Source: a virus
Lineage: Duplodnaviria > Heunggongvirae > Uroviricota > Caudoviricetes
IMG/VR virus record: IMGVR_UViG_2645727810_000025
Span: 1 to 43,893 of that record
Strand: one strand, 5' to 3'
DNA length: 43,893 bases
The notes under the pieces were generated by a model. The model did not search any database and was not told the origin of the DNA. It saw only the letters and a list, made by a program, of their open reading frames with translations. Both the position numbers and the translations under genes were made by a program. This document shows, piece by piece, positions 5,493 through 34,945 of this stretch. Position 1 is the first letter of the stretch; every line of letters begins with the position of its first letter.

Positions 5493-5507
5493 TTACCATT
5501 TTGGTAA
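5493..5507. promoter_or_regulatory. operator-like palindrome TTACCATTTTGGTAA (OL-like site 1)
   Basis: Perfect 5+5 inverted repeat with 5-nt spacer, 14 nt upstream of the leftward operon start. Confidence 0.6.
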
Positions 5508-5568
5508 TACTTGAAGATGCAGGAAAGCCACGAAGTGGTGGTTTCTGCCTGAGCGACGCGCTCCTGTA

Positions 5569-5583
5569 TTACCTTTTGGGTAA
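5569..5583. promoter_or_regulatory. operator-like palindrome TTACCTTTTGGGTAA (OL-like site 2)
   Basis: Same TTACC-N5-GGTAA pattern, followed by TAATC. Confidence 0.55.
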
Positions 5584-5630
5584 TAATCAGATCAAAAAGT
5601 GATTGTGTCAATAGGTATGACGAGAAAAAA

Positions 5631-5645
5631 TTACCATTTTGGTAA
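5631..5645. promoter_or_regulatory. operator-like palindrome TTACCATTTTGGTAA (OL-like site 3)
   Basis: Same pattern; lies between the leftward operon and the 3' end of the repressor gene. Confidence 0.55.
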
Positions 5646-5703: not shown

Positions 5704-6300
5704 TTACTTGCTTTTGTTCTGCTCAAACACGAAGTTGATGAATGAGGTGATCTTGTTCTTCTCTTCCTGTGGCAGAGCTGCATACATCCGGTGGTCGTAG
5801 TCGATAACACCAGGAGCGCCGACGGGAATAATCATCTCGTATGCTTCATGCCCGAACGCGCGCGCCAGGGAGGAAAGAACACCGATGGTCGTGCTGACTT
5901 CCGCTTTCATAATCCGGTTAACTGTGGCCGGGCCAATACCAGCTGCAACAGCAACTTTCTTTTCGGATGTCATTTCCGTGTTCTTTCTCATCCAGGCATT
6001 GAGCGTGGCTGCGGCCTGCTTCTCTACAGTCCATTCGCCATCTTCAGTGGCCGGAATAAAGATATCAGCCTGTACTGCGTCCAGTTCGTGATCGACATCA
6101 AGCCAGAACTTTTCTTTGCGCGCCGCTTCTTCAATGATACGCGCGGCATTCGGCCCGATGTTTTTGATGCCAGTGCACCACCGGTTGACCAGGTTCTGCG
6201 AACGCTTCACCCGCTCTGCAAAGCGCAACTGGGTGTCATCGAAATCCCGGCGAATGATTTCGTTAAGGTTTTTGCGTCTTATGTCATAAATACTTTTCAT
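5704..6300 (-). CDS. CI-like phage repressor with two Xre-type helix-turn-helix domains
   Basis: 198 aa; N-terminal HTH (TQLRFAERVKRSQNLVNRW...ARKEKFWLD) and a second HTH-like segment (AVAAGIGPATVNRIMKAEV); no S24 peptidase domain; divergent from the Cro-like gene with palindromic sites on both sides; no SD before the ATG. Confidence 0.7.
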   Translation of the reverse strand: MKSIYDIRRKNLNEIIRRDFDDTQLRFAERVKRSQNLVNRWCTGIKNIGPNAARIIEEAARKEKFWLDVDHELDAVQADIFIPATEDGEWTVEKQAAATLNAWMRKNTEMTSEKKVAVAAGIGPATVNRIMKAEVSTTIGVLSSLARAFGHEAYEMIIPVGAPGVIDYDHRMYAALPQEEKNKITSFINFVFEQNKSK

Positions 6301-6354: not shown

Positions 6355-6386
6355 TTACCATAAAGGTAAAGTTACCATAACGGTAA
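6355..6386. promoter_or_regulatory. two adjacent operator-like palindromes (TTACCATAAAGGTAA and TTACCATAACGGTAA), OR-like
   Basis: Tandem TTACC-N5-GGTAA sites with 17-bp centre spacing between the divergent repressor and Cro-like genes; second site followed by TAATCAT. Confidence 0.6.
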
Positions 6387-6401
6387 TAATCATTGATTTT
6401 T

Positions 6402-6416
6402 TCACCAGAAAGGTAA
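6402..6416. promoter_or_regulatory. degenerate operator-like site TCACCAGAAAGGTAA (OR-like site 3)
   Basis: One mismatch in the left half; followed by TAATTCA; 40 bp upstream of the Cro-like ATG. Confidence 0.4.
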
Positions 6417-12299: not shown

Positions 12300-12637
12300 T
12301 GGCTAAATCCGCAGCAGAACGCAAAGCCGCGCAGCGGGCCCGCCAGGCTGAATCTGGTAACCGCAAGCTTGAATTGCAACTCGATGAGCAGGAGCATGAG
12401 ATGCTGGCGCGGAACTGCGCCGCCCGGCGCCCTGGTCGTGCGCCGTATGAGATGAGCGAGTACATCGCGTTGCTTATCCGCCAGGATGATGCGCGAGTTC
12501 GTGGCCGTATCAAGTCAATCAGTTCTAACCGCTGTGGTAAGTGCGGCGATTCGCTACCGGTTGAGTCGTGTCCGTGCGACGGTGATTCTGCATGTTGGGT
12601 GACGCGTGGCTGGCATGAGACTAAGTTATCAGTGTGA
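12299..12637 (+). CDS. hypothetical basic protein with C-terminal Cys cluster (112 aa); candidate regulator
   Basis: ATG after GGAGGTGAGG; N-terminus rich in R/K/Q, C-terminus CGKCGDS...CPCDGDSAC; last gene before the packaging genes. Confidence 0.5.
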   Translation: MAKSAAERKAAQRARQAESGNRKLELQLDEQEHEMLARNCAARRPGRAPYEMSEYIALLIRQDDARVRGRIKSISSNRCGKCGDSLPVESCPCDGDSACWVTRGWHETKLSV

Positions 12638-12645
12638 CATGTCAC
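12634..12645. repeat. 12-bp perfect palindrome GTGACATGTCAC (copy 1)
   Basis: Overlaps the TGA stop of the 12299-12637 gene; followed by an intrinsic terminator. Confidence 0.7.
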
Positions 12646-12705: not shown

Positions 12706-12738
12706 TTACCAAAACGGTAATTATTACTTCGGTGGTAA
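12706..12738. promoter_or_regulatory. operator-like palindrome TTACCAAAACGGTAA plus degenerate second site TTACTTCGGTGGTAA
   Basis: First site followed by TTATTAC; second site ends 3 nt before the terS ATG. Confidence 0.5.
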
Positions 12739-12740
12739 CA

Positions 12741-13334
12741 ATGCCCGCAGAACCAAAAGCACCAAAACGCAAATCAACGCAGTACAAGCCACTGACAGCG
12801 ATGCAGGAGGCTTACGCGCAGGAATACACCAAATGCCCTGAGAATCAGACGCAGGCAGCGATTAACGCAGGGTTCTCACCTAATACAGCAGCGGTCAAGG
12901 CCAGTGTCATGATGCGTGATGAGCGCATCCAGAAACGGATCGCCGAACTGATGGAAGAGCGCAACAAGCGCCTGCGAGTCAGTGCGGATTACGTACTGCT
13001 TCGCCTGGTAGAAATAGACCAGATGGATGTGATTGACATCCTGAACGATGACGGCACGCTGAAGCCGATCCGCGAGTGGCCAAAGATATGGCGTACCACG
13101 CTGAGCGGTTTCGACCTGTCATCGACCATCATGAACATGGATGAGACCTCGATAGAGACAATCCTCAAAAAAATAAAATGGCCTGACAAGGTGAAGAACC
13201 TCGAGCTTATCGGTAAACACGTGGACGTTAACGCGTTCAAAGAGCGCCTTGAGGTATCCGGCACCGTCACCATTGCCGACCGCATGGCGAAGGCCCGCCG
13301 TCGCGTGAAAGAGCAGGCTGGTGGTGAAGAATGA
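12741..13334 (+). CDS. terminase small subunit
   Basis: 197 aa from ATG at 12741; AGFSPNTAAVKAS segment resembles the P27-family small terminase HTH; directly upstream of and overlapping the large subunit. Confidence 0.7.
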   Translation: MPAEPKAPKRKSTQYKPLTAMQEAYAQEYTKCPENQTQAAINAGFSPNTAAVKASVMMRDERIQKRIAELMEERNKRLRVSADYVLLRLVEIDQMDVIDILNDDGTLKPIREWPKIWRTTLSGFDLSSTIMNMDETSIETILKKIKWPDKVKNLELIGKHVDVNAFKERLEVSGTVTIADRMAKARRRVKEQAGGEE

Positions 13335-14812
13335 CAACCGCAGCCATGTCGCCGGAAGAACAGCTCGTCGAGGATATCGCCTCGTTCACGTATGACCCGC
13401 TGGGCTATTCGCTGTATGCGTTTCCGTGGGGCGAAGAGGGAACAGAGCTGGCGCATGCCACCGGCCCACGCAAATGGCAGGCCGATGCATTCCGCGAGAT
13501 ACGCGATCACCTTCAGAATCCTGCCACTCGTCACCAGCCGCTGATGCTGGCCCGCGCATCCGGCCACGGTATCGGCAAATCCGCGTTCATCTCAATGCTG
13601 ATTAACTGGGGCATGTCCACCTGTGAAGACTGCAAGGTGGTGGTGACCGCCAACACAGACAACCAGCTGCGCACCAAAACATGGCCTGAAATCATCAAAT
13701 GGTCGAACCTGGCTATCACGAAAGAGTGGTTCACCTGCACCGCCACCGCGATGTACAGCAACGATCCCGGTCATGACAAACGCTGGCGCGCTGATGCTAT
13801 CCCATGGTCTGAGCACAACACTGAGGCGTTCGCCGGGCTGCACAACGAGCGTAAGCGCATCATAGTTGTATTCGATGAAGCGTCCAACATTGCCGATCTG
13901 GTGTGGGAAGTTGCCGAGGGTGCGCTGACGGACGAAGACACTGAAATCATCTGGGTGGCGTTCGGGAACCCGACGCGTAACACCGGGCGTTTCCGTGAAT
14001 GCTTCCGTAAATACAAACACCGCTGGAAGTGCGCGCAGATTGATTCACGTACCGTGGAAGGCACCAACAAGGAGCAACTGCAAAAATGGGTGGACGACTA
14101 CGGCGAGGACAGCGATTTCGTCAAAGTACGTGTGCGCGGGATCTTCCCTGACGCTTCTGAAAACCAGTTCATTCCATCAGGCCTGACGCAACCAGCTGTT
14201 GGCAGGGTTATTACTCCGGCACAGGTCCAGCACGCTGCTGTAGTTCTTGGCGTCGACCCGTCTCACCAGGGTAAAGACCCGGCGGTTATCTACCTGCGGC
14301 AAGGCCTGCACTGCAAAAAACTCGGGGAGTGGCAGCGTACCACTGACGATGTGCTGTTTGCGAAAGTGATTGCCGACTTCGAGGACCAGTACCAGGCTGA
14401 CGCTGTGTTTATCGATTACGGCTATGGCACAGGTCTTAAATCTGTTGGCGATAACTGGGGGCGCAACTGGACGCTGATAATGTTCGGCAGCGGTACGGCA
14501 GATCCCGAGATGGGCAACAAACGCGGCGAGATGTATAAATCCGCCCGTGACGCGCTGAAGCTTGGTGCGCAACTGGATAGCCAGGAACTTGCCGACGAAC
14601 TGAGCGCACCTGAATACAAAGTCAGGCTGAAGGACAGTAGGAAGATTTTGCAGGACAAGGACGAGGTGAAAGAATTGCTTGGCCGTTCACCGAACAACGC
14701 CGACGCCTATGTTCTGACCTACGCAGCACCGGTTACAAAAAAACAGTTTAACTATGGGCAGCAGCAAAGCCAGCAGGGTAAGGCACTCACAGAGTACGAT
14801 CCCTATGCATGA
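13331..14812 (+). CDS. terminase large subunit
   Basis: 493 aa; Walker A-like GHGIGKS; size and position between small terminase and the structural genes. Confidence 0.85.
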   Translation: MTTAAMSPEEQLVEDIASFTYDPLGYSLYAFPWGEEGTELAHATGPRKWQADAFREIRDHLQNPATRHQPLMLARASGHGIGKSAFISMLINWGMSTCEDCKVVVTANTDNQLRTKTWPEIIKWSNLAITKEWFTCTATAMYSNDPGHDKRWRADAIPWSEHNTEAFAGLHNERKRIIVVFDEASNIADLVWEVAEGALTDEDTEIIWVAFGNPTRNTGRFRECFRKYKHRWKCAQIDSRTVEGTNKEQLQKWVDDYGEDSDFVKVRVRGIFPDASENQFIPSGLTQPAVGRVITPAQVQHAAVVLGVDPSHQGKDPAVIYLRQGLHCKKLGEWQRTTDDVLFAKVIADFEDQYQADAVFIDYGYGTGLKSVGDNWGRNWTLIMFGSGTADPEMGNKRGEMYKSARDALKLGAQLDSQELADELSAPEYKVRLKDSRKILQDKDEVKELLGRSPNNADAYVLTYAAPVTKKQFNYGQQQSQQGKALTEYDPYA

Positions 14813-14990: not shown

Positions 14991-15002
14991 GTGACATGTC
15001 AC
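14991..15002. repeat. 12-bp perfect palindrome GTGACATGTCAC (copy 2)
   Basis: Contains the TGA stop (reverse strand) of the 14999-15274 gene. Confidence 0.7.
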
Positions 15003-15274
15003 GGCTTAAAAACCGGCGGCACAGATGCCGTTCTTTGGATAGTTTTAATTATCTCACTTTCGTAATGATCTGCTCTTTTTTTCTGAATACTCATGTACTG
15101 AACGATGGCCTGTTGTTCAGTAATCGCACCATTCCTGAGTGCTGCAATAACCATCCTCGCATAAGTATCATGGGCAATTAAAGACTCAAGGTACTCAATA
15201 GCTGATGATTCTTTGGCCTGAATTTCCTGCTCGATAGCCATGAAGGATGGTGCTGGAGATGCAGTTGATACCAT
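14999..15274 (-). CDS. hypothetical helical protein (91 aa)
   Basis: ATG at 15274 with AAGGTG SD (the track's first codon at 15283 is GTG); no family recognised. Confidence 0.5.
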   Translation of the reverse strand: MVSTASPAPSFMAIEQEIQAKESSAIEYLESLIAHDTYARMVIAALRNGAITEQQAIVQYMSIQKKRADHYESEIIKTIQRTASVPPVFKP

Positions 15275-15286
15275 GATTATCACCTT

Positions 15287-15310
15287 AAAAAAATGCCCAC
15301 CGAAGTGGGC
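15287..15310 (-). terminator. intrinsic terminator (minus strand)
   Basis: GCCCAC-ttcg-GTGGGC hairpin followed by a T7 run on the minus strand, downstream of the 15395-15640 gene. Confidence 0.6.
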
Positions 15311-15387
15311 GAACTGGAAGCAAGGGTGCCTTCCATGGCAGTTACGGGTTTACAGCGCAACGTCATCGCAATGGCGTTCTGGTGTAA

Positions 15388-15409
15388 AGCCGCATTAGGC
15401 GGCTTTTTT
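15388..15409 (+). terminator. intrinsic terminator (plus strand)
   Basis: AGCCGC-loop-GCGGCT hairpin followed by TTTTTTG; overlaps the 3' end of the leftward 15395 gene (face-to-face with the minus-strand terminator). Confidence 0.5.
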
Positions 15410-15640
15410 GACTGGCGTTAACCATGCTTTGTTGAATTCCCGCATGGCTTCTTCTGGGGTGCTACCTACGCCGACAACTCCGGTTGGCAGGTCGCCATAT
15501 ATCGCAAGCCATTTATCTCCATCCTGACTAAGTGTCGGTCTGTACAAAACACTCGGTTCACGCATGCATTCAGAAGTAATCTGAAAGTCAGAGGCAACGT
15601 TGAAGAACACGTTTTGGAAATATCCGAGGTCAATATTCAT
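15395..15640 (-). CDS. hypothetical small protein with HicB-like (UPF0150-type) motif
   Basis: 81 aa, ATG with GGAG SD; segment DGDKWLAIYGDLPTGVVGVGSTPEEAMREFNKAW matches the HicB N-terminal pattern (DGGY..S.PDLPGC...G.T.EEA); no DNA-binding domain attached. Confidence 0.45.
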   Translation of the reverse strand: MNIDLGYFQNVFFNVASDFQITSECMREPSVLYRPTLSQDGDKWLAIYGDLPTGVVGVGSTPEEAMREFNKAWLTPVKKAA

Positions 15641-16534
15641 ACTTTTCTCCGGTAAAAAGGGCGGTGGTCAGAAAGGGAATAACTGCCACCGCCAAACTTG
15701 CACTGGAACTACGGGTATCACGGTCCTGAGGCGTGATTGGGTTGTGGTACGCAGTCTATTCGGCATAGCAACTCTGCGCAGATGCTTCTAACAATCACCG
15801 GTGGTAACCGGTTTAATGCCTTATTCACCACAACGGAAAGAGCACTGAAGCGATTACGATTTCAAGGTCGTAATGCTGGCATTGTCGCAATGCTCTTGCC
15901 TGTTGTGTGCTGACCTTACAGCCAGCATGGCTGGAATGAAGCCGCATAACGACTTTTCACCAACTAGGCAGGATCACCCTGAAAGAGCTGCCTCTTGATT
16001 CTTTCAGGCTCCCAATCTTTCCTGGTAGTCAATGCCTTCAGTTGGGCATGCAACCTTCGGTTATCGATCCGTCGTCATCGCCACTGTCCAGGACATTTAA
16101 AAGGACCGTCTCCAAGTGGTAACTCTTCCAGTCCCGCTAAGCACCCGGTGAGATGCTTAACGTGAATGGCTGACATCCTCGTCTCTTCCGAGGTGTCACA
16201 CCGTATCGCCACGATGGTGAGTCGTCTGTCCGTGCTTACCTAACACTGGCTTGCACATTCCGGCTACCCGGCTGGGGAAGTAGCATCAAGGGAACCCATC
16301 CGGACCGCTGCGGCACATGTGCCATATGCCGTACTGCTACACACCTGAAAGCGCACTCCACACCAGGCTCAAAGGTCATTCACTGAAGCGCGCTTTTAGT
16401 TGTGTGCGGAGATGATGCTCCGCTTATCCACCGCCTTTACTTTTAAGCCCAATTTATTGCTGCGGTACTCCGGGCTACTGCACAAGCGGTTACATAACCA
16501 CCTCCGCAATTCGTCAATTCAATACATGAATCAA
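15641..16534. other. about 0.9-kb ORF-free, hairpin-dense region (candidate structured ncRNA or decayed gene)
   Basis: No ORF of 60 aa or more in any frame except one 63-aa track ORF (15600-15791, +) at the left edge, although GC looks like coding DNA; many local stem-loops (GGCGGTGG...CCACCGCC near 15661; CCTGAAAG...CTTTCAGG near 15975; GCGGAG-atgatg-CTCCGC near 16408; palindrome GGCACATGTGCC near 16312). Confidence 0.3.
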
Positions 16535-16549
16535 TTACCTAAAAGGTAA
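16535..16549. promoter_or_regulatory. operator-like palindrome TTACCTAAAAGGTAA
   Basis: TTACC-N5-GGTAA followed by TATCT; a GGTAATAAT half-site follows at about 16607; 90 bp upstream of the 16640 gene and the portal operon. Confidence 0.5.
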
Positions 16550-16639
16550 TATCTGATGTTATAAGTGTCAATAGCCTACGCTAAATAAATCATATGTGGT
16601 TAAATTGGTAATAATTTAATTGCGTACGGAGCTATTGCT

Positions 16640-16846
16640 ATGTGTATCGGCAGCAAGCCATCAGTGCCAGCAGCACCAGAAGTACAGGCCGCGCCACAGG
16701 AGCAGGATGCAGCAGTTGTCAGTTCTCGTGATGACGAAGAGCGCCGCCGCCGTGCAGCTGCTGGTCGCAGTTCTACTCTGCTGACTGGTGCGCAGGGCGA
16801 CACCTCAACCGCAAACACCAGCGGTAAAACGCTGCTCGGTCAGTAA
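16640..16846 (+). CDS. hypothetical small protein (68 aa), Ala/Ser/Thr-rich
   Basis: ATG 12 nt after GGAG; directly upstream of the portal gene. Confidence 0.5.
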   Translation: MCIGSKPSVPAAPEVQAAPQEQDAAVVSSRDDEERRRRAAAGRSSTLLTGAQGDTSTANTSGKTLLGQ

Positions 16847-16860
16847 CGGAGTAGGCAGAG

Positions 16861-18531
16861 ATGGCGGAAACCGAAAAAGAGCGTCTGCTGAAGCAGCTAG
16901 CACAGCTGAAGAGTGAGCGCACATCGTTCGAATCGCACTGGCGTGACCTGAGCGATTTTATCAATCCGCGCGGTTCCCGCTTTCTGACGTCTGATGTAAA
17001 CCGTGATGATCGTCGTAACACCAAGATTGTTGATCCTACCGGCTCAATGGCTCAGCGCATTCTGTCCAGCGGCATGATGTCCGGCATCACGAGCCCGGCA
17101 CGTCCATGGTTCAAACTGGCAACGCCTGACCCTGACATGATGGATTACGGCCCGGTGAAAGTCTGGCTTGAAGTCGTGCAGCGCCGCATGAACGAAGTGT
17201 TCAACAAGTCTAACCTGTATCAGTCACTGCCTGTCATGTACGCCAGCCTGGGTACTTTCGGCACCGCCGCTATGGCTGTGCTGGAAGATGACCAGGACGT
17301 TATCCGCACAATGCCTTTCCCGATTGGCAGCTACTACCTGGCTAACAGCCCGCGCGGCAGCGTCGACACTTCATTCCGTCAGTTCTCCATGACTGTTCGT
17401 CAACTGGTGCAGGAATTCGGTCTGGATAACGTCAGCTCATCGGTGCAGGGGATGTGGCAAAACGGCACGTATGAAACGTGGATCGAGGTTAACCACTGCA
17501 TTACGCCAAACGTTAACCGCGACACAGGGAAGATGGACAGCAAGAACAAGCCGTTCCGCTCCGTGTACTTCGAGAGTGGCGGCGACTCCGACAAGCTGCT
17601 GCGTGAATCCGGATTCGATGAATTCCCGATCCTTGCTCCGCGCTGGGAAGTTAACGGCGAAGACGTTTACGCATCATCCTGCCCCGGCATGCTGGCACTC
17701 GGTCAGGTTAAAGCCCTTCAGGTTGAGCAGAAGCGTAAGGCTCAGCTCATAGATAAGGCCACTAACCCGCCGATGGTTGCACCGACGTCACTTAAAACGC
17801 AGCGTGTTTCCCTGCTTCCTGGTGATGTGACGTACCTCGACGTGTTGAGCGGTCAGGACGGTTTCAAACCTGCATACCTGGTAAACCCGAATACTGCAGA
17901 TCTGCTGGCTGATATTCAGGATACCCGCCAGACCATCAACAGCGCCTACTTTGTCGACCTCTTCATGATGCTGCAAAACATCAATACCCGCTCTATGCCG
18001 GTGGAAGCGGTGATCGAGATGAAGGAAGAGAAACTGCTGATGCTTGGCCCGGTGCTGGAGCGCCTGAACGACGAAGCGCTTAACCCGCTTATTGACCGCG
18101 TGTTCTCCATTATGGCGCGCAAAAATATGCTTCCGCCACCGCCTGACGTTATGCAGGGTATGCCGCTGCGTATCGAATACATCTCCGTTATGGCGCAGGC
18201 TCAGAAATCTATCGGACTCACCAGCCTTTCGCAGACCGTTGGCTTCATTGGCCAACTCGCACAGTTCAAACCTGAAGCACTCGACAAGCTCGATGTGGAT
18301 GAGGCTATCGACGCGTTCTCCGAAATGTCCGGCGTATCGCCAACCGTCATCATTCCGCAGGAGCAGGTTCAGGGCATTCGTGAAGAGCGCGCCAAACAGG
18401 CACAAGCCGCACAGGCAATGGCAATGGGGCAGGCCGTAGCGCAGGGAGCCAAGACTCTCAGCGAGACGCAAACCACTGACCCGAGCGCATTAACCGCTAT
18501 CGCTAATGCAGCAGGAGCACCGCAGCAATGA
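16861..18531 (+). CDS. portal protein
   Basis: 556 aa; first large gene after the terminase region, followed by scaffold and capsid; N-terminal pattern resembles podovirus portal proteins. Confidence 0.75.
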   Translation: MAETEKERLLKQLAQLKSERTSFESHWRDLSDFINPRGSRFLTSDVNRDDRRNTKIVDPTGSMAQRILSSGMMSGITSPARPWFKLATPDPDMMDYGPVKVWLEVVQRRMNEVFNKSNLYQSLPVMYASLGTFGTAAMAVLEDDQDVIRTMPFPIGSYYLANSPRGSVDTSFRQFSMTVRQLVQEFGLDNVSSSVQGMWQNGTYETWIEVNHCITPNVNRDTGKMDSKNKPFRSVYFESGGDSDKLLRESGFDEFPILAPRWEVNGEDVYASSCPGMLALGQVKALQVEQKRKAQLIDKATNPPMVAPTSLKTQRVSLLPGDVTYLDVLSGQDGFKPAYLVNPNTADLLADIQDTRQTINSAYFVDLFMMLQNINTRSMPVEAVIEMKEEKLLMLGPVLERLNDEALNPLIDRVFSIMARKNMLPPPPDVMQGMPLRIEYISVMAQAQKSIGLTSLSQTVGFIGQLAQFKPEALDKLDVDEAIDAFSEMSGVSPTVIIPQEQVQGIREERAKQAQAAQAMAMGQAVAQGAKTLSETQTTDPSALTAIANAAGAPQQ

Positions 18532-33442: not shown

Positions 33443-33739
33443 ATGCAAGCTATTGGTTTCATTGTTTACATAGTTGTTGGTCTTTTTCAGTTGGCTGCGA
33501 TCATGGCTGGTCTTGAATCGTGGTGGGGACTGCACTGGATAGTGGCTGCACCCATTGCTTTCATCGTTAGTTATATCCCGTTGGTCGGTTCCATTGTTGG
33601 AATGGTTGGCGCTGTCGACGTATGGCGTTGGGAATGGTGGCAGGCAGGGCTTCTTTTCTTTGGCGGCCTGGTTTTTGCTATTGCGTGCGGGGGAATGTCT
33701 TCGTTCTTCGAATGGCTATCCTTCAGGAAAAGAGCGTGA
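33443..33739 (+). CDS. small integral membrane protein (98 aa, about 3 TM segments)
   Basis: Hydrophobic Trp-rich sequence; ATG after AGGTGA; stop lies inside the GTGACATGTCAC palindrome. Confidence 0.6.
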   Translation: MQAIGFIVYIVVGLFQLAAIMAGLESWWGLHWIVAAPIAFIVSYIPLVGSIVGMVGAVDVWRWEWWQAGLLFFGGLVFAIACGGMSSFFEWLSFRKRA

Positions 33740-33747
33740 CATGTCAC
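33736..33747. repeat. 12-bp perfect palindrome GTGACATGTCAC (copy 3)
   Basis: Overlaps the TGA stop of the 33443-33739 gene; followed by a terminator. Confidence 0.7.
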
Positions 33748-34685: not shown

Positions 34686-34843
34686 AGTGATCACCTTTTA
34701 GTCTGGTTAATCACCACCGGAGGTTCCAATCTCGGAGGTGGTGAACTGTGCAGGGTTGGAACTACCGGCTAAAAGGACCCGGCGCACCTTTCGGTGCCCC
34801 CACACAGCCCACCATAATGCGAATGTGGCCGTGCTTAACGCAT

Positions 34844-34945
34844 AAAAAAACCGCTTGCGCGGTGAATGCGCCTTTTAGTATCCGGGGTTCCAATCCCGGC
34901 ACTGGATTTTGCCAGTGCCTGATCACTATGGCACAAGTATTTTGC
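34844..34945 (-). ncRNA. candidate small regulatory RNA upstream of the antirepressor gene (C4-antisense-like architecture)
   Basis: Minus-strand order: palindromic promoter-like site (34955-34969), then 8-bp stem-loop GGCACUGG/CCAGUGCC, 5-bp stem-loop with loop AUUGGAAC, then CCGC-GCAA-GCGG hairpin plus U7; the loop motif GAUUGGAAC recurs in a hairpin at 34715-34745 in the antirepressor 5' UTR. Confidence 0.3.

Follow-up and report, generated by a model that had tools for sequence, protein, structure and literature searches.

What occupies the stretch between the terminase and portal genes of a tailed phage, genes that directly adjoin in most such phages, was the question raised by the 43,893-nucleotide (nt) viral DNA of IMG/VR record IMGVR_UViG_2645727810_000025 (positions 1 to 43,893; the window). 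A first-pass annotation made from the letters alone had pointed to about 2 kb inserted between the terminase large-subunit gene terL (13331-14812) and the portal gene (16861-18531), which was borne out: the interval from terL to a gp3-like gene (16640-16846) holds two small minus-strand open reading frames (ORFs; 14999-15283 and 15395-15640) and an ORF-free stretch, 15641-16534, in which the sole frame of at least 60 amino acids (aa) is a 63-aa TTG ORF (15600-15791) at the left edge. The coding-like GC content that had been remarked on was also found (0.48-0.57 over 15641-16534, with a dip to ~0.41 at 16400-16700 alone). A large structured non-coding RNA, a long regulated leader of the late operon and a recently decayed gene had been offered as explanations. 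According to our analysis, 15641-16534 very probably encodes, on the minus strand, a structured leader RNA of which a hitherto undescribed RNA family forms part. The first explanation was therefore essentially right as to structured RNA, which is a mosaic of separately conserved modules and not one monolith, and the second as to a leader, which lies on the minus and not the late-gene strand and points at the two leftward ORFs (hereafter cargo ORFs) and not at the portal operon.

Structured-RNA modules, each conserved and exchangeable independently of the others, make up the leader; they are arranged on the minus strand as 5' hairpins, core, module D1, a rare insert, a P5 hairpin module, a 94-nt domain, and a small hairpin followed by a DicF-like stem-loop. 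The key module is the 166-nt pseudoknotted core, whose family is absent from Rfam and which consists of the following elements.

16167-16332, minus strand: core structured RNA, 166 nt, defined by alignment A2 and covariance model R1.
16331-16311, minus strand: P1 hairpin, whose apex is the palindrome GGCACATGTGCC (16312-16323) already noticed in the first-pass annotation.
16308-16300 pairing with 16271-16263, minus strand: P2, which closes a variable apical insert.
16268-16250, minus strand: junction GGUAGCCGGAAUGUGCAAG, the nearly invariant 19-mer GGTAGCCGGAATGTGCAAG.
16225-16211, minus strand: P3 hairpin with loop UCACCA, extended by three closing pairs.
Loop CACC of P3 pairing with GGUG at 16202-16199, minus strand: pseudoknot.
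16193-16177, minus strand: P4, CCUCG-GAAGAGA-CGAGG.

The fold was evaluated by counting the 30 proposed pairs in A2, an alignment of 35 non-redundant core homologues; a first alignment of the core had shown invariant blocks with compensating hairpins between them. In A2, 96.9% of the cells were paired and 11 of the 30 pairs were altered on both sides (77 such cells). None of 500 shuffles reached the percentage of paired cells or the covariation score of A2, only 1 of the 500 reached 11 two-sided pairs, and in controls with slid partners the pairing fell to 29-44%. Several invariant G-U pairs would become A-C on the plus strand, indicating that the minus strand is the RNA strand. The covariance check that had been proposed for this region, once run on homologues, thus yielded compensatory pairs that support both the core fold and the minus strand. 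RNAalifold on its own recovered P2, P3 and P4; at the 5' side it preferred to pair the P1 nucleotides (16311-16331) with the invariant 19-mer (16250-16268) through GCACAU:AUGUGC and flanking triplets, which excludes the local P1 hairpin and the three P3-closing pairs. All of the 35 sequences fit either fold, and only the local P1 has a covarying pair, a single one that possibly reflects just two lineages.

Regarding folding energy, the minus strand of the whole 894 nt gave -334.3 kcal/mol against -294.4 +/- 6.9 kcal/mol for dinucleotide shuffles (z = -5.8, 20 shuffles), and the plus strand gave z = -3.8 (20 shuffles). The core by itself (191 nt) showed z of about -0.5 on both strands, and because this energy is unexceptional, the support for the core is comparative and not thermodynamic. 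R1, built from A2, found one match in the window (16167-16332, minus strand, 165.7 bits) and scored 110-167 bits in 25 held-out loci, namely 23 matched genome loci, mEp460 and Ayreon. The suggested Infernal search did not provide a known family, no Rfam 15 model (of 4227) reaching its gathering threshold in 15641-16534 and nothing appearing over the core even at E <=10. Conserved core sequences and put-like elements of this kind were likewise not found in the searchable literature.

Members of the core family are spread widely among temperate Enterobacterales phages, in each case facing variable accessory genes. We found the core in >180 phage or prophage loci, essentially all of Enterobacterales. 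By sensitive blastn against phage genomes, the whole stretch was present at ~90% identity only in 65FD, 66FD and PAT1, and a sub-segment of ~160 nt at 70-80% identity in many unrelated phages (Stx2-converting phages, mEp390, mEp460, cdtI, Ayreon, Klebsiella phages, two phages entered under Stenotrophomonas, and SopranoGao); the region is a mosaic, pieces of which turn up separately in unrelated phages. A phage deposited under the host Stenotrophomonas, vB_SmeS_BUCT708 (L006), has the core downstream of a helix-turn-helix (HTH) repressor gene; Stenotrophomonas is the sole non-Enterobacterales host among the named carriers, and this host assignment, or the origin of the phage, may be questionable. 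At least 120 viral contigs contain the 19-mer, as do 24 species-representative genomes, comprising 22 of Enterobacterales and 2 metagenome-assembled genome (MAG) bins labelled Bacillota/Oscillospiraceae; the MAG loci L198 and L210 carry a full-scoring core (165 bits in L210) and are probably mis-binned or contaminant. A scan seeded on another conserved segment showed the 19-mer to be exact in 114 of 122 loci, with single changes in the remainder.

Three recurrent contexts of the core were observed, namely after cI/PL (Stx2 phages, mEp460 and mEp390), after phage tRNA clusters, and in the terL-portal slot. Lambdoid phages have the core in a gap without annotation that immediately follows cI, on the cI strand, which corresponds to the minus strand of the window, and a cI-type repressor gene is the closest same-strand neighbour upstream of the core in 61 loci. 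In the tRNA-cluster class of prophage (L040, L063, L016, L135 and others), the cluster (Arg-UCU, Tyr, Thr, Ser ... Met-CAU) ends with tRNA-Met (CAU), the core begins 14 nt farther on, and a Tad2-like (anti-Thoeris) gene comes next. A related set has a DnaB-type helicase gene ~185 nt downstream of the core, and in SopranoGao the core is situated between the lysis genes and a terminal small gene. The first genes downstream of the core fall into 27 unrelated clusters, including Tad2-like and N4 gp49/Sf6 gp66 family proteins, and N was not recognisable among the first genes of the early-left operons in core loci.

The leader appears to have its own promoter, which we read from the sequence as follows.

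16535-16571, minus strand: putative promoter of sigma-70 type, TTGACA (16571-16566), 17-nt spacer, TACCTT (16548-16543).

Transcription would start near 16536, so that the leader would match the interval originally marked out almost exactly. A palindrome, TTACCTAAAAGGTAA (16535-16549), overlaps the -10 element, and the same promoter with its overlapping palindrome is kept in 50 non-redundant epsilon15-like loci. The motif TTACC-N5-GGTAA occurs in the window in 10 exact copies (15 with <=1 mismatch) versus 0.68 expected, at positions 5493-5645, 6355-6416, 8549, 12706-12738, 16535, 34955 and 35338. Two triple clusters of it flank a 198-aa HTH repressor-like ORF (5704-6300, minus strand) in the manner of OL/OR, with further sites, single or double, where the terminase small-subunit ORF begins, in the leader promoter and close to C4/isrK; this spread suggests one repressor acting at several promoters. 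Since the -10 element lies under an operator-like palindrome that also flanks the repressor gene, the leader unit would be early and probably repressor-controlled, like PL in lambdoid phages. In lambdoid core loci, PL-like promoters (TTGACA-17-TACATT, GATACT or TATCTT) directly follow the cI terminator and leave 7-55 nt to the core. Separately, the C4 antisense RNA (77 bits) and isrK (76 bits) are adjacent at 34734-34918 on the minus strand as an antirepressor immunity module of the P1/P7 type, a pair that is also present in the Stx2a_1447 locus (L004).

Downstream and upstream of the core, the remaining part of the leader was resolved into these modules.

16337-16423, minus strand: 5' leader segment, with hairpin GCGGAG-CAUCAU-CUCCGC (16423-16406) and a copy of a hairpin module (16406-16337).
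16082-16170, minus strand: module D1, hairpins UAAGCAUC...GGUGCUUA and GGAC...GUCC.
15908-16081, minus strand: rare structured insert of ~175 nt, with the CCUGAAAG...CUUUCAGG helix of the first-pass annotation and nested helices.
15829-15907, minus strand: P5 hairpin module, CACAAC-AGGC-AAGAGCA ... UGCUCUU-UCC-GUUGUG, with a two-hairpin interior.
15741-15834, minus strand: multi-stem domain of 94 nt, closed by GUUGUGGU/ACCACAAC.
15654-15737, minus strand: module B, a small hairpin (15737-15717) and, behind it, an intrinsic terminator (15708-15654) formed by a DicF-like stem-loop and its U-run.

The hairpins named in the first-pass annotation exist, among them the CCTGAAAG...CTTTCAGG helix and the nested GAGCA hairpin; in relatives, several of them are conserved and show compensatory changes. 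Its proposal that GGCACATGTGCC is akin, through an ACATGT core, to three GTGACATGTCAC palindromes was not supported, because no GTGACATGTCAC copy falls within the RNA modules and the RNA itself explains the P1 apex; the grouping of ACATGT-core palindromes into one family was rejected, those copies being unrelated to P1. As a separate observation, GTGACATGTCAC occurs in three exact copies (12634-12645, 14991-15002 and 33736-33747) versus 0.12 expected, and that at 14991-15002 overlaps the 3' end of cargo ORF 2.

The individual modules differ in their distribution. The copy at 16406-16337 belongs to a recurring module (CACAAC...AAGCGC / GCGCUUU...GUGUG), the arm motifs of which are also found just upstream of the core elsewhere. 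By blastn against the collected loci, D1 recurs at 92-96% identity in 12 loci, one of them mEp390. The rare insert was otherwise confined to phages of the 65FD type (L001) and to Kosakonia sacchari (L190) and Pseudescherichia vulneris (L213) prophages. The rare insert shows compensatory differences in at least 5 helices, CCTGAAAG/CTTTCAGG among them (CGAU/AUCG to CGCU/AGCG; GUUG/CAAC to GUCG/CGAC; CCA/UGG to CCC/GGG to CCG/CGG; GGCAG/CUGCC to GGCGG/CCGCC). In most relatives P5 directly follows the core (+85 to +95), and one to three copies of this ~80-nt module are present per leader. P5 also covaries (CAAAAC:GUUUUG versus CACAAC:GUUGUG, and AGGGCGU:GCGCCCU versus AGAGCAU:GUGCUCU), and its 3' arm contains a base-paired, boxA-like UGCUCUUU. 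The recurring P5-type hairpin could be an RNase III site or punctuation between modules.

The 94-nt domain sits where most epsilon15-like relatives have tRNA-Arg(UCU) (L003, L008 and L023), and in the window no tRNA was found by ARAGORN or by RF00005. It gave a weak, full-length match to RF03011 (Methylophilales-1; 29.7 bits, E 0.002, below the gathering threshold of 79.9), and its independent homologue in L213 (1259-1355) had RF03011 as the only match (22.9 bits), both keeping the three-stem layout, GAAUAAGGCA and the UGCCGA-AUAGA segments. The domain may therefore be a distant enterobacterial-phage relative of the Methylophilales-1 orphan motif, on which a literature search found nothing. 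Module B is common to ~60 loci; its terminator hairpin has -18.8 kcal/mol, and it ends 14 nt short of the AUG of the 81-aa cargo ORF, with a GGAG ribosome-binding site between. The match of RF00039 (DicF) at 15659-15708 on the minus strand reached 22.7 bits (E 0.05) under a gathering threshold of 48, while K-12 dicF scored 76.7 bits in the same Rfam search. In shape and context the piece resembles DicF, being ~53 nt long with a 3' stem-loop and U-run, in a prophage operon that is probably repressor-controlled, and just before small ORFs; a crude duplex check of it against the ftsZ translation start with RNAduplex gave unrealistic structures.

The accessory unit served by the leader consists of two small ORFs and a conserved spacer between them.

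15395-15640, minus strand: cargo ORF 1, 81 aa, its stop codon lying in the loop of a hairpin (15409-15386).
15287-15385, minus strand: module C, a conserved non-coding spacer with terminator GCCCAC-UUCG-GUGGGC + U7 (15310-15287).
14999-15283, minus strand: cargo ORF 2, listed as 94 aa from GTG, with a likely start at ATG 15274 (91 aa).

Both cargo ORFs are unique to this phage among the loci compared. Cargo ORF 1 was unmatched in Pfam, PHROGs, PADLOC, NCBIfam and PDB, and cargo ORF 2 had sub-threshold family matches only. Modules B and C abut in most relatives, indicating that the 81-aa ORF is an insertion. Module C is conserved in ~33 loci, and a terminator scan placed its terminator three bases before the ribosome-binding site of cargo ORF 2; a further terminator-like hairpin (15030-15017, minus strand) lies within the last codons of that ORF. 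Since an intrinsic terminator directly precedes the ribosome-binding site of each ORF, expression of the cargo needs read-through. In the epsilon15-like relatives, core and cargo are separated by these same two strong terminators. The window itself derives from an epsilon15-like (Uetakevirus) phage or prophage, its terL and portal matching those of the Salmonella phages epsilon15, SPN1S and 65FD/PAT1, E. coli phiV10-type phages and Klebsiella relatives.

How could transcription pass such terminators? HK022, a lambdoid phage lacking N, has cis-acting processive antiterminator RNAs, putL and putR (PMC9378689). By analogy, the core would act in cis on the transcribing RNA polymerase (RNAP) or on termination factors and would let the polymerase pass the intrinsic terminators farther downstream and withstand Rho on the long untranslated RNA. 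The outcome would be processive antitermination, functionally analogous to put and not homologous to it. The long hairpins and the tRNA, or its substitute, would be processing points for RNase III/P/E that free stable small RNAs such as the DicF-like 3' piece. By what is established about rut sites, G-rich RNA is unfavourable for Rho loading, and the minus strand is G-rich by GC skew. As a whole, we tentatively read the stretch as the untranslated leader, ~880 nt long, of a small leftward accessory unit inserted between terL and portal, ending at the start codon of the 81-aa ORF and containing an antiterminating core, a combined reading that falls somewhat short of probable. The mechanism considered for itself, that the core works by antitermination, is a possibility that we hold with some reserve. 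A wider proposal is on balance doubtful: the core would be a second, structurally unrelated class of phage RNA that reprograms E. coli-type RNAP or blocks Rho in cis, replacing N/nut in N-less lambdoid phages (Stx2-converting, SfV/mEp460-like and mEp390), while epsilon15-like phages would use it to drive early accessory or anti-defence cassettes through terminators, with the leader doubling as a processing scaffold for tRNA or DicF-like RNAs.

Several observations weigh against antitermination by the core or against the leader as outlined here. The -10 element of the leader promoter is weak, and because just 3 of its 6 positions match, the promoter was missed by a simple promoter scan. A crude count of terminators was positive on the RNA strand in 137 and on the opposite strand in 114 of 155 loci, and since the opposite strand scores almost as often with this noisy detector, the census is not discriminating. 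Epsilon15 (L002, 2589-2679) has only a truncated core remnant (34 bits) and yet keeps a minus-strand cargo gene, so that the core is not indispensable there. The epsilon15 plus-strand 'RNaseIII' annotation (2677-2776) begins at the edge of this remnant, just on its 5' side. A relationship to put at the sequence level did not emerge either: when putL and putR were aligned with three core variants (z = -0.6 to 2.4), local alignment of putL gave z = 2.4 for one core variant and 0.4 for the window, putR gave nothing, and R1 had no match in the cI-nun-PR region of HK022. Homology based on ACGGCG...CAUGCGUCG..AGCG, which is shared with putL, was rejected, as shuffling showed it not to be significant and the window variant to be at chance; a 14-nt exact match between the core and HK022 lies inside the nun coding sequence and was attributed to chance. 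Lastly, the two exclusive pairings of P1 could point to a switch and not a constitutive element, and the core travels with stable-RNA genes (tRNA-Arg downstream, a tRNA cluster 14 nt upstream, and the DicF-like small RNA), so that a stable RNA acting in trans fits equally well.

This last explanation, an operon of stable trans-acting RNAs, is the main rival and, in our estimate, an unlikely one. Cleavage by RNase III, P or E would free the core from a precursor shared with the tRNA (or its substitute) and the DicF-like RNA; its target would be conserved in host or phage, for instance a protein, an mRNA or a defence system, and the ORFs would be passengers. The occurrence of tRNA-Arg(UCU) directly after P5 in epsilon15-like phages, of a tRNA cluster ending 14 nt upstream of the core elsewhere and of a DicF-like terminator behind it agrees with such an operon, as does the near-invariance of the 19-mer and the loops across diverse phages, which suggests a conserved ligand or target. 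The dicBF operon provides a precedent, in which RNase III and RNase E excise a small RNA from a polycistronic prophage transcript under repressor control (bioRxiv 10.1101/2023.04.14.536235). However, the core was upstream of the cargo on the same strand in every context studied and usually 0-220 nt from a promoter, a placement that a free-standing RNA would not need; it has no terminator following it and no obvious 3' end of its own, and no target could be proposed. A signal-responsive switch, in which the core bound by a ligand or protein would toggle between two folds and set transcription or processing into the accessory genes, seems improbable to us. The pseudoknot, the conserved junction nucleotides and the length of ~166 nt are typical of aptamer domains, and the local P1 and GCACAU:AUGUGC pairings both fit 35 of the 35 sequences. 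Yet the P1:19-mer pairing has no compensatory support because both partners are invariant, the 27 clusters of downstream genes share no functional theme, and the nearest terminators are 300-600 nt away with variable modules between, so that there is no adjacent expression platform. The usual marks of a riboswitch, coherent downstream genes or an adjacent platform that sequesters a ribosome-binding site or forms a terminator, were therefore not seen.

The two further explanations dispense with a leftward RNA function. That the modules are boundary sequences at the DNA level (homology patches, operators or recombination sites) for swapping accessory cassettes is very improbable. It would account for the cargo ORFs being unique insertions flanked by conserved non-coding modules, with the 81-aa ORF exactly between B and C, and for the mosaic of pieces found apart in unrelated phages, but homology patches predict neither helix-preserving compensation nor strand-specific G-U pairs nor a pseudoknot; the modules may also serve as recombination substrates, which would leave their structure unexplained. 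A decayed protein gene, or a plus-strand leader of the late (gp3-portal) operon, is scarcely credible. The coding-like GC, the position just upstream of gp3 and portal on the plus strand, and the epsilon15 annotation of a plus-strand RNase III site and a repressor site in a partly homologous segment speak for one or the other. On the other hand, stops are present in all frames of 15641-16534, relatives have no annotated protein or tiny 'hypothetical' calls only at this place, and from a list of 18 stop-to-stop fragments in six frames (each >=35 aa) the ten longest (45-70 aa) had no significant Pfam or PHROGs match. With neither an open frame nor a recognisable family remnant, a protein-coding gene or pseudogene was not supported; nor is recent gene decay, since helix substitutions among relatives are compensatory. 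The covariation and G-U pairs suit the minus strand only, plus-strand folding has the weaker z, and in lambdoid phages the core is unrelated to late genes. Taken together, the region holds more interest than a spacer of the usual kind; the evidence that it is a structured RNA of the minus strand is good, and antitermination is put forward as a hypothesis for its mode of action.

To our knowledge, RNA-only processive antitermination in enteric phages is so far confined to HK022 put and a handful of close relatives. If the core does work by antitermination, a second and far more widespread antiterminator class would alter the view of early control in N-less phages, which include carriers of Shiga toxin and the epsilon15/phiV10 group used in typing and biocontrol. 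Whatever the mechanism, the core constitutes a well-supported RNA family that is absent from Rfam and yet resides in the best-studied bacteria. The core stands where hyper-variable accessory and anti-defence cassettes begin and, given the Tad2-like cargo, could be a handle in searches for them. In addition, tRNA genes, DicF-like small RNAs and other structured domains emerge as interchangeable modules of one leader. Since the core is short, with clear invariant nucleotides and covarying helices, the antitermination hypothesis is directly testable.

Compared with known systems, the leader resembles GOLLD, ROOL and Methylophilales-1 in being a large, highly structured phage-borne non-coding RNA near tRNA genes. 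It differs in that GOLLD and ROOL gave no matches and RF03011 scores far under gathering, and in that it is a mosaic of exchangeable modules and not one conserved large fold. With the lambda N-leader (nutL) and the boxA of rrn/tRNA operons it shares a long structured leader after PL, a hairpin suited to RNase III, the boxA-like UGCUCUUU and co-transcribed stable RNAs. The rrn boxA is UGCUCUUUAACAA; the boxA-like segment of the window, in contrast, is paired in a covarying helix and not single-stranded, and neither boxB nor N is present.

The dicBF operon of Qin is likewise a repressor-controlled operon of early-left type with a long untranslated stretch and a small-RNA terminator just before small ORFs (bioRxiv 10.1101/2023.04.14.536235). 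Module B resembles DicF in sequence and shape, and the sequence upstream of Qin dicF has the arm motif GUGCGCUUCCGGUUGUGG, whereas R1 finds no core copy there and the DicF model score of module B is below gathering. In E. coli K-12 Qin (L187, 3540-3935), the 340-nt non-coding stretch before dicF contains GUGCGCUUCCGGUUGUGG and no core. The dicBF leader may be a degenerate relative of the leader architecture described here.

The put RNAs suppress termination and pausing in a factor-independent manner via the zinc-binding domain of the RNAP beta-prime subunit. The core differs from them in size (166 nt versus 74 nt) and architecture (four helices and a pseudoknot versus two stems), does not contain the GGAUGA...CAAUG conserved in put stem II, and was seen in one copy per phage. 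On the other hand, its setting and one of its stems are reminiscent of HK022: the core is located just downstream of an early promoter next to cI, in the nascent transcript and upstream of terminators; the lambdoid phages bearing it have no recognisable N at the first early-left position; in HK022 terminator-like hairpins come directly after putL in the sequence, and terminators also lie downstream of the core; and the P1 stem, whose likeness to put stem I is within chance, reads ACGGC...GUCG with a G-U at the third pair.

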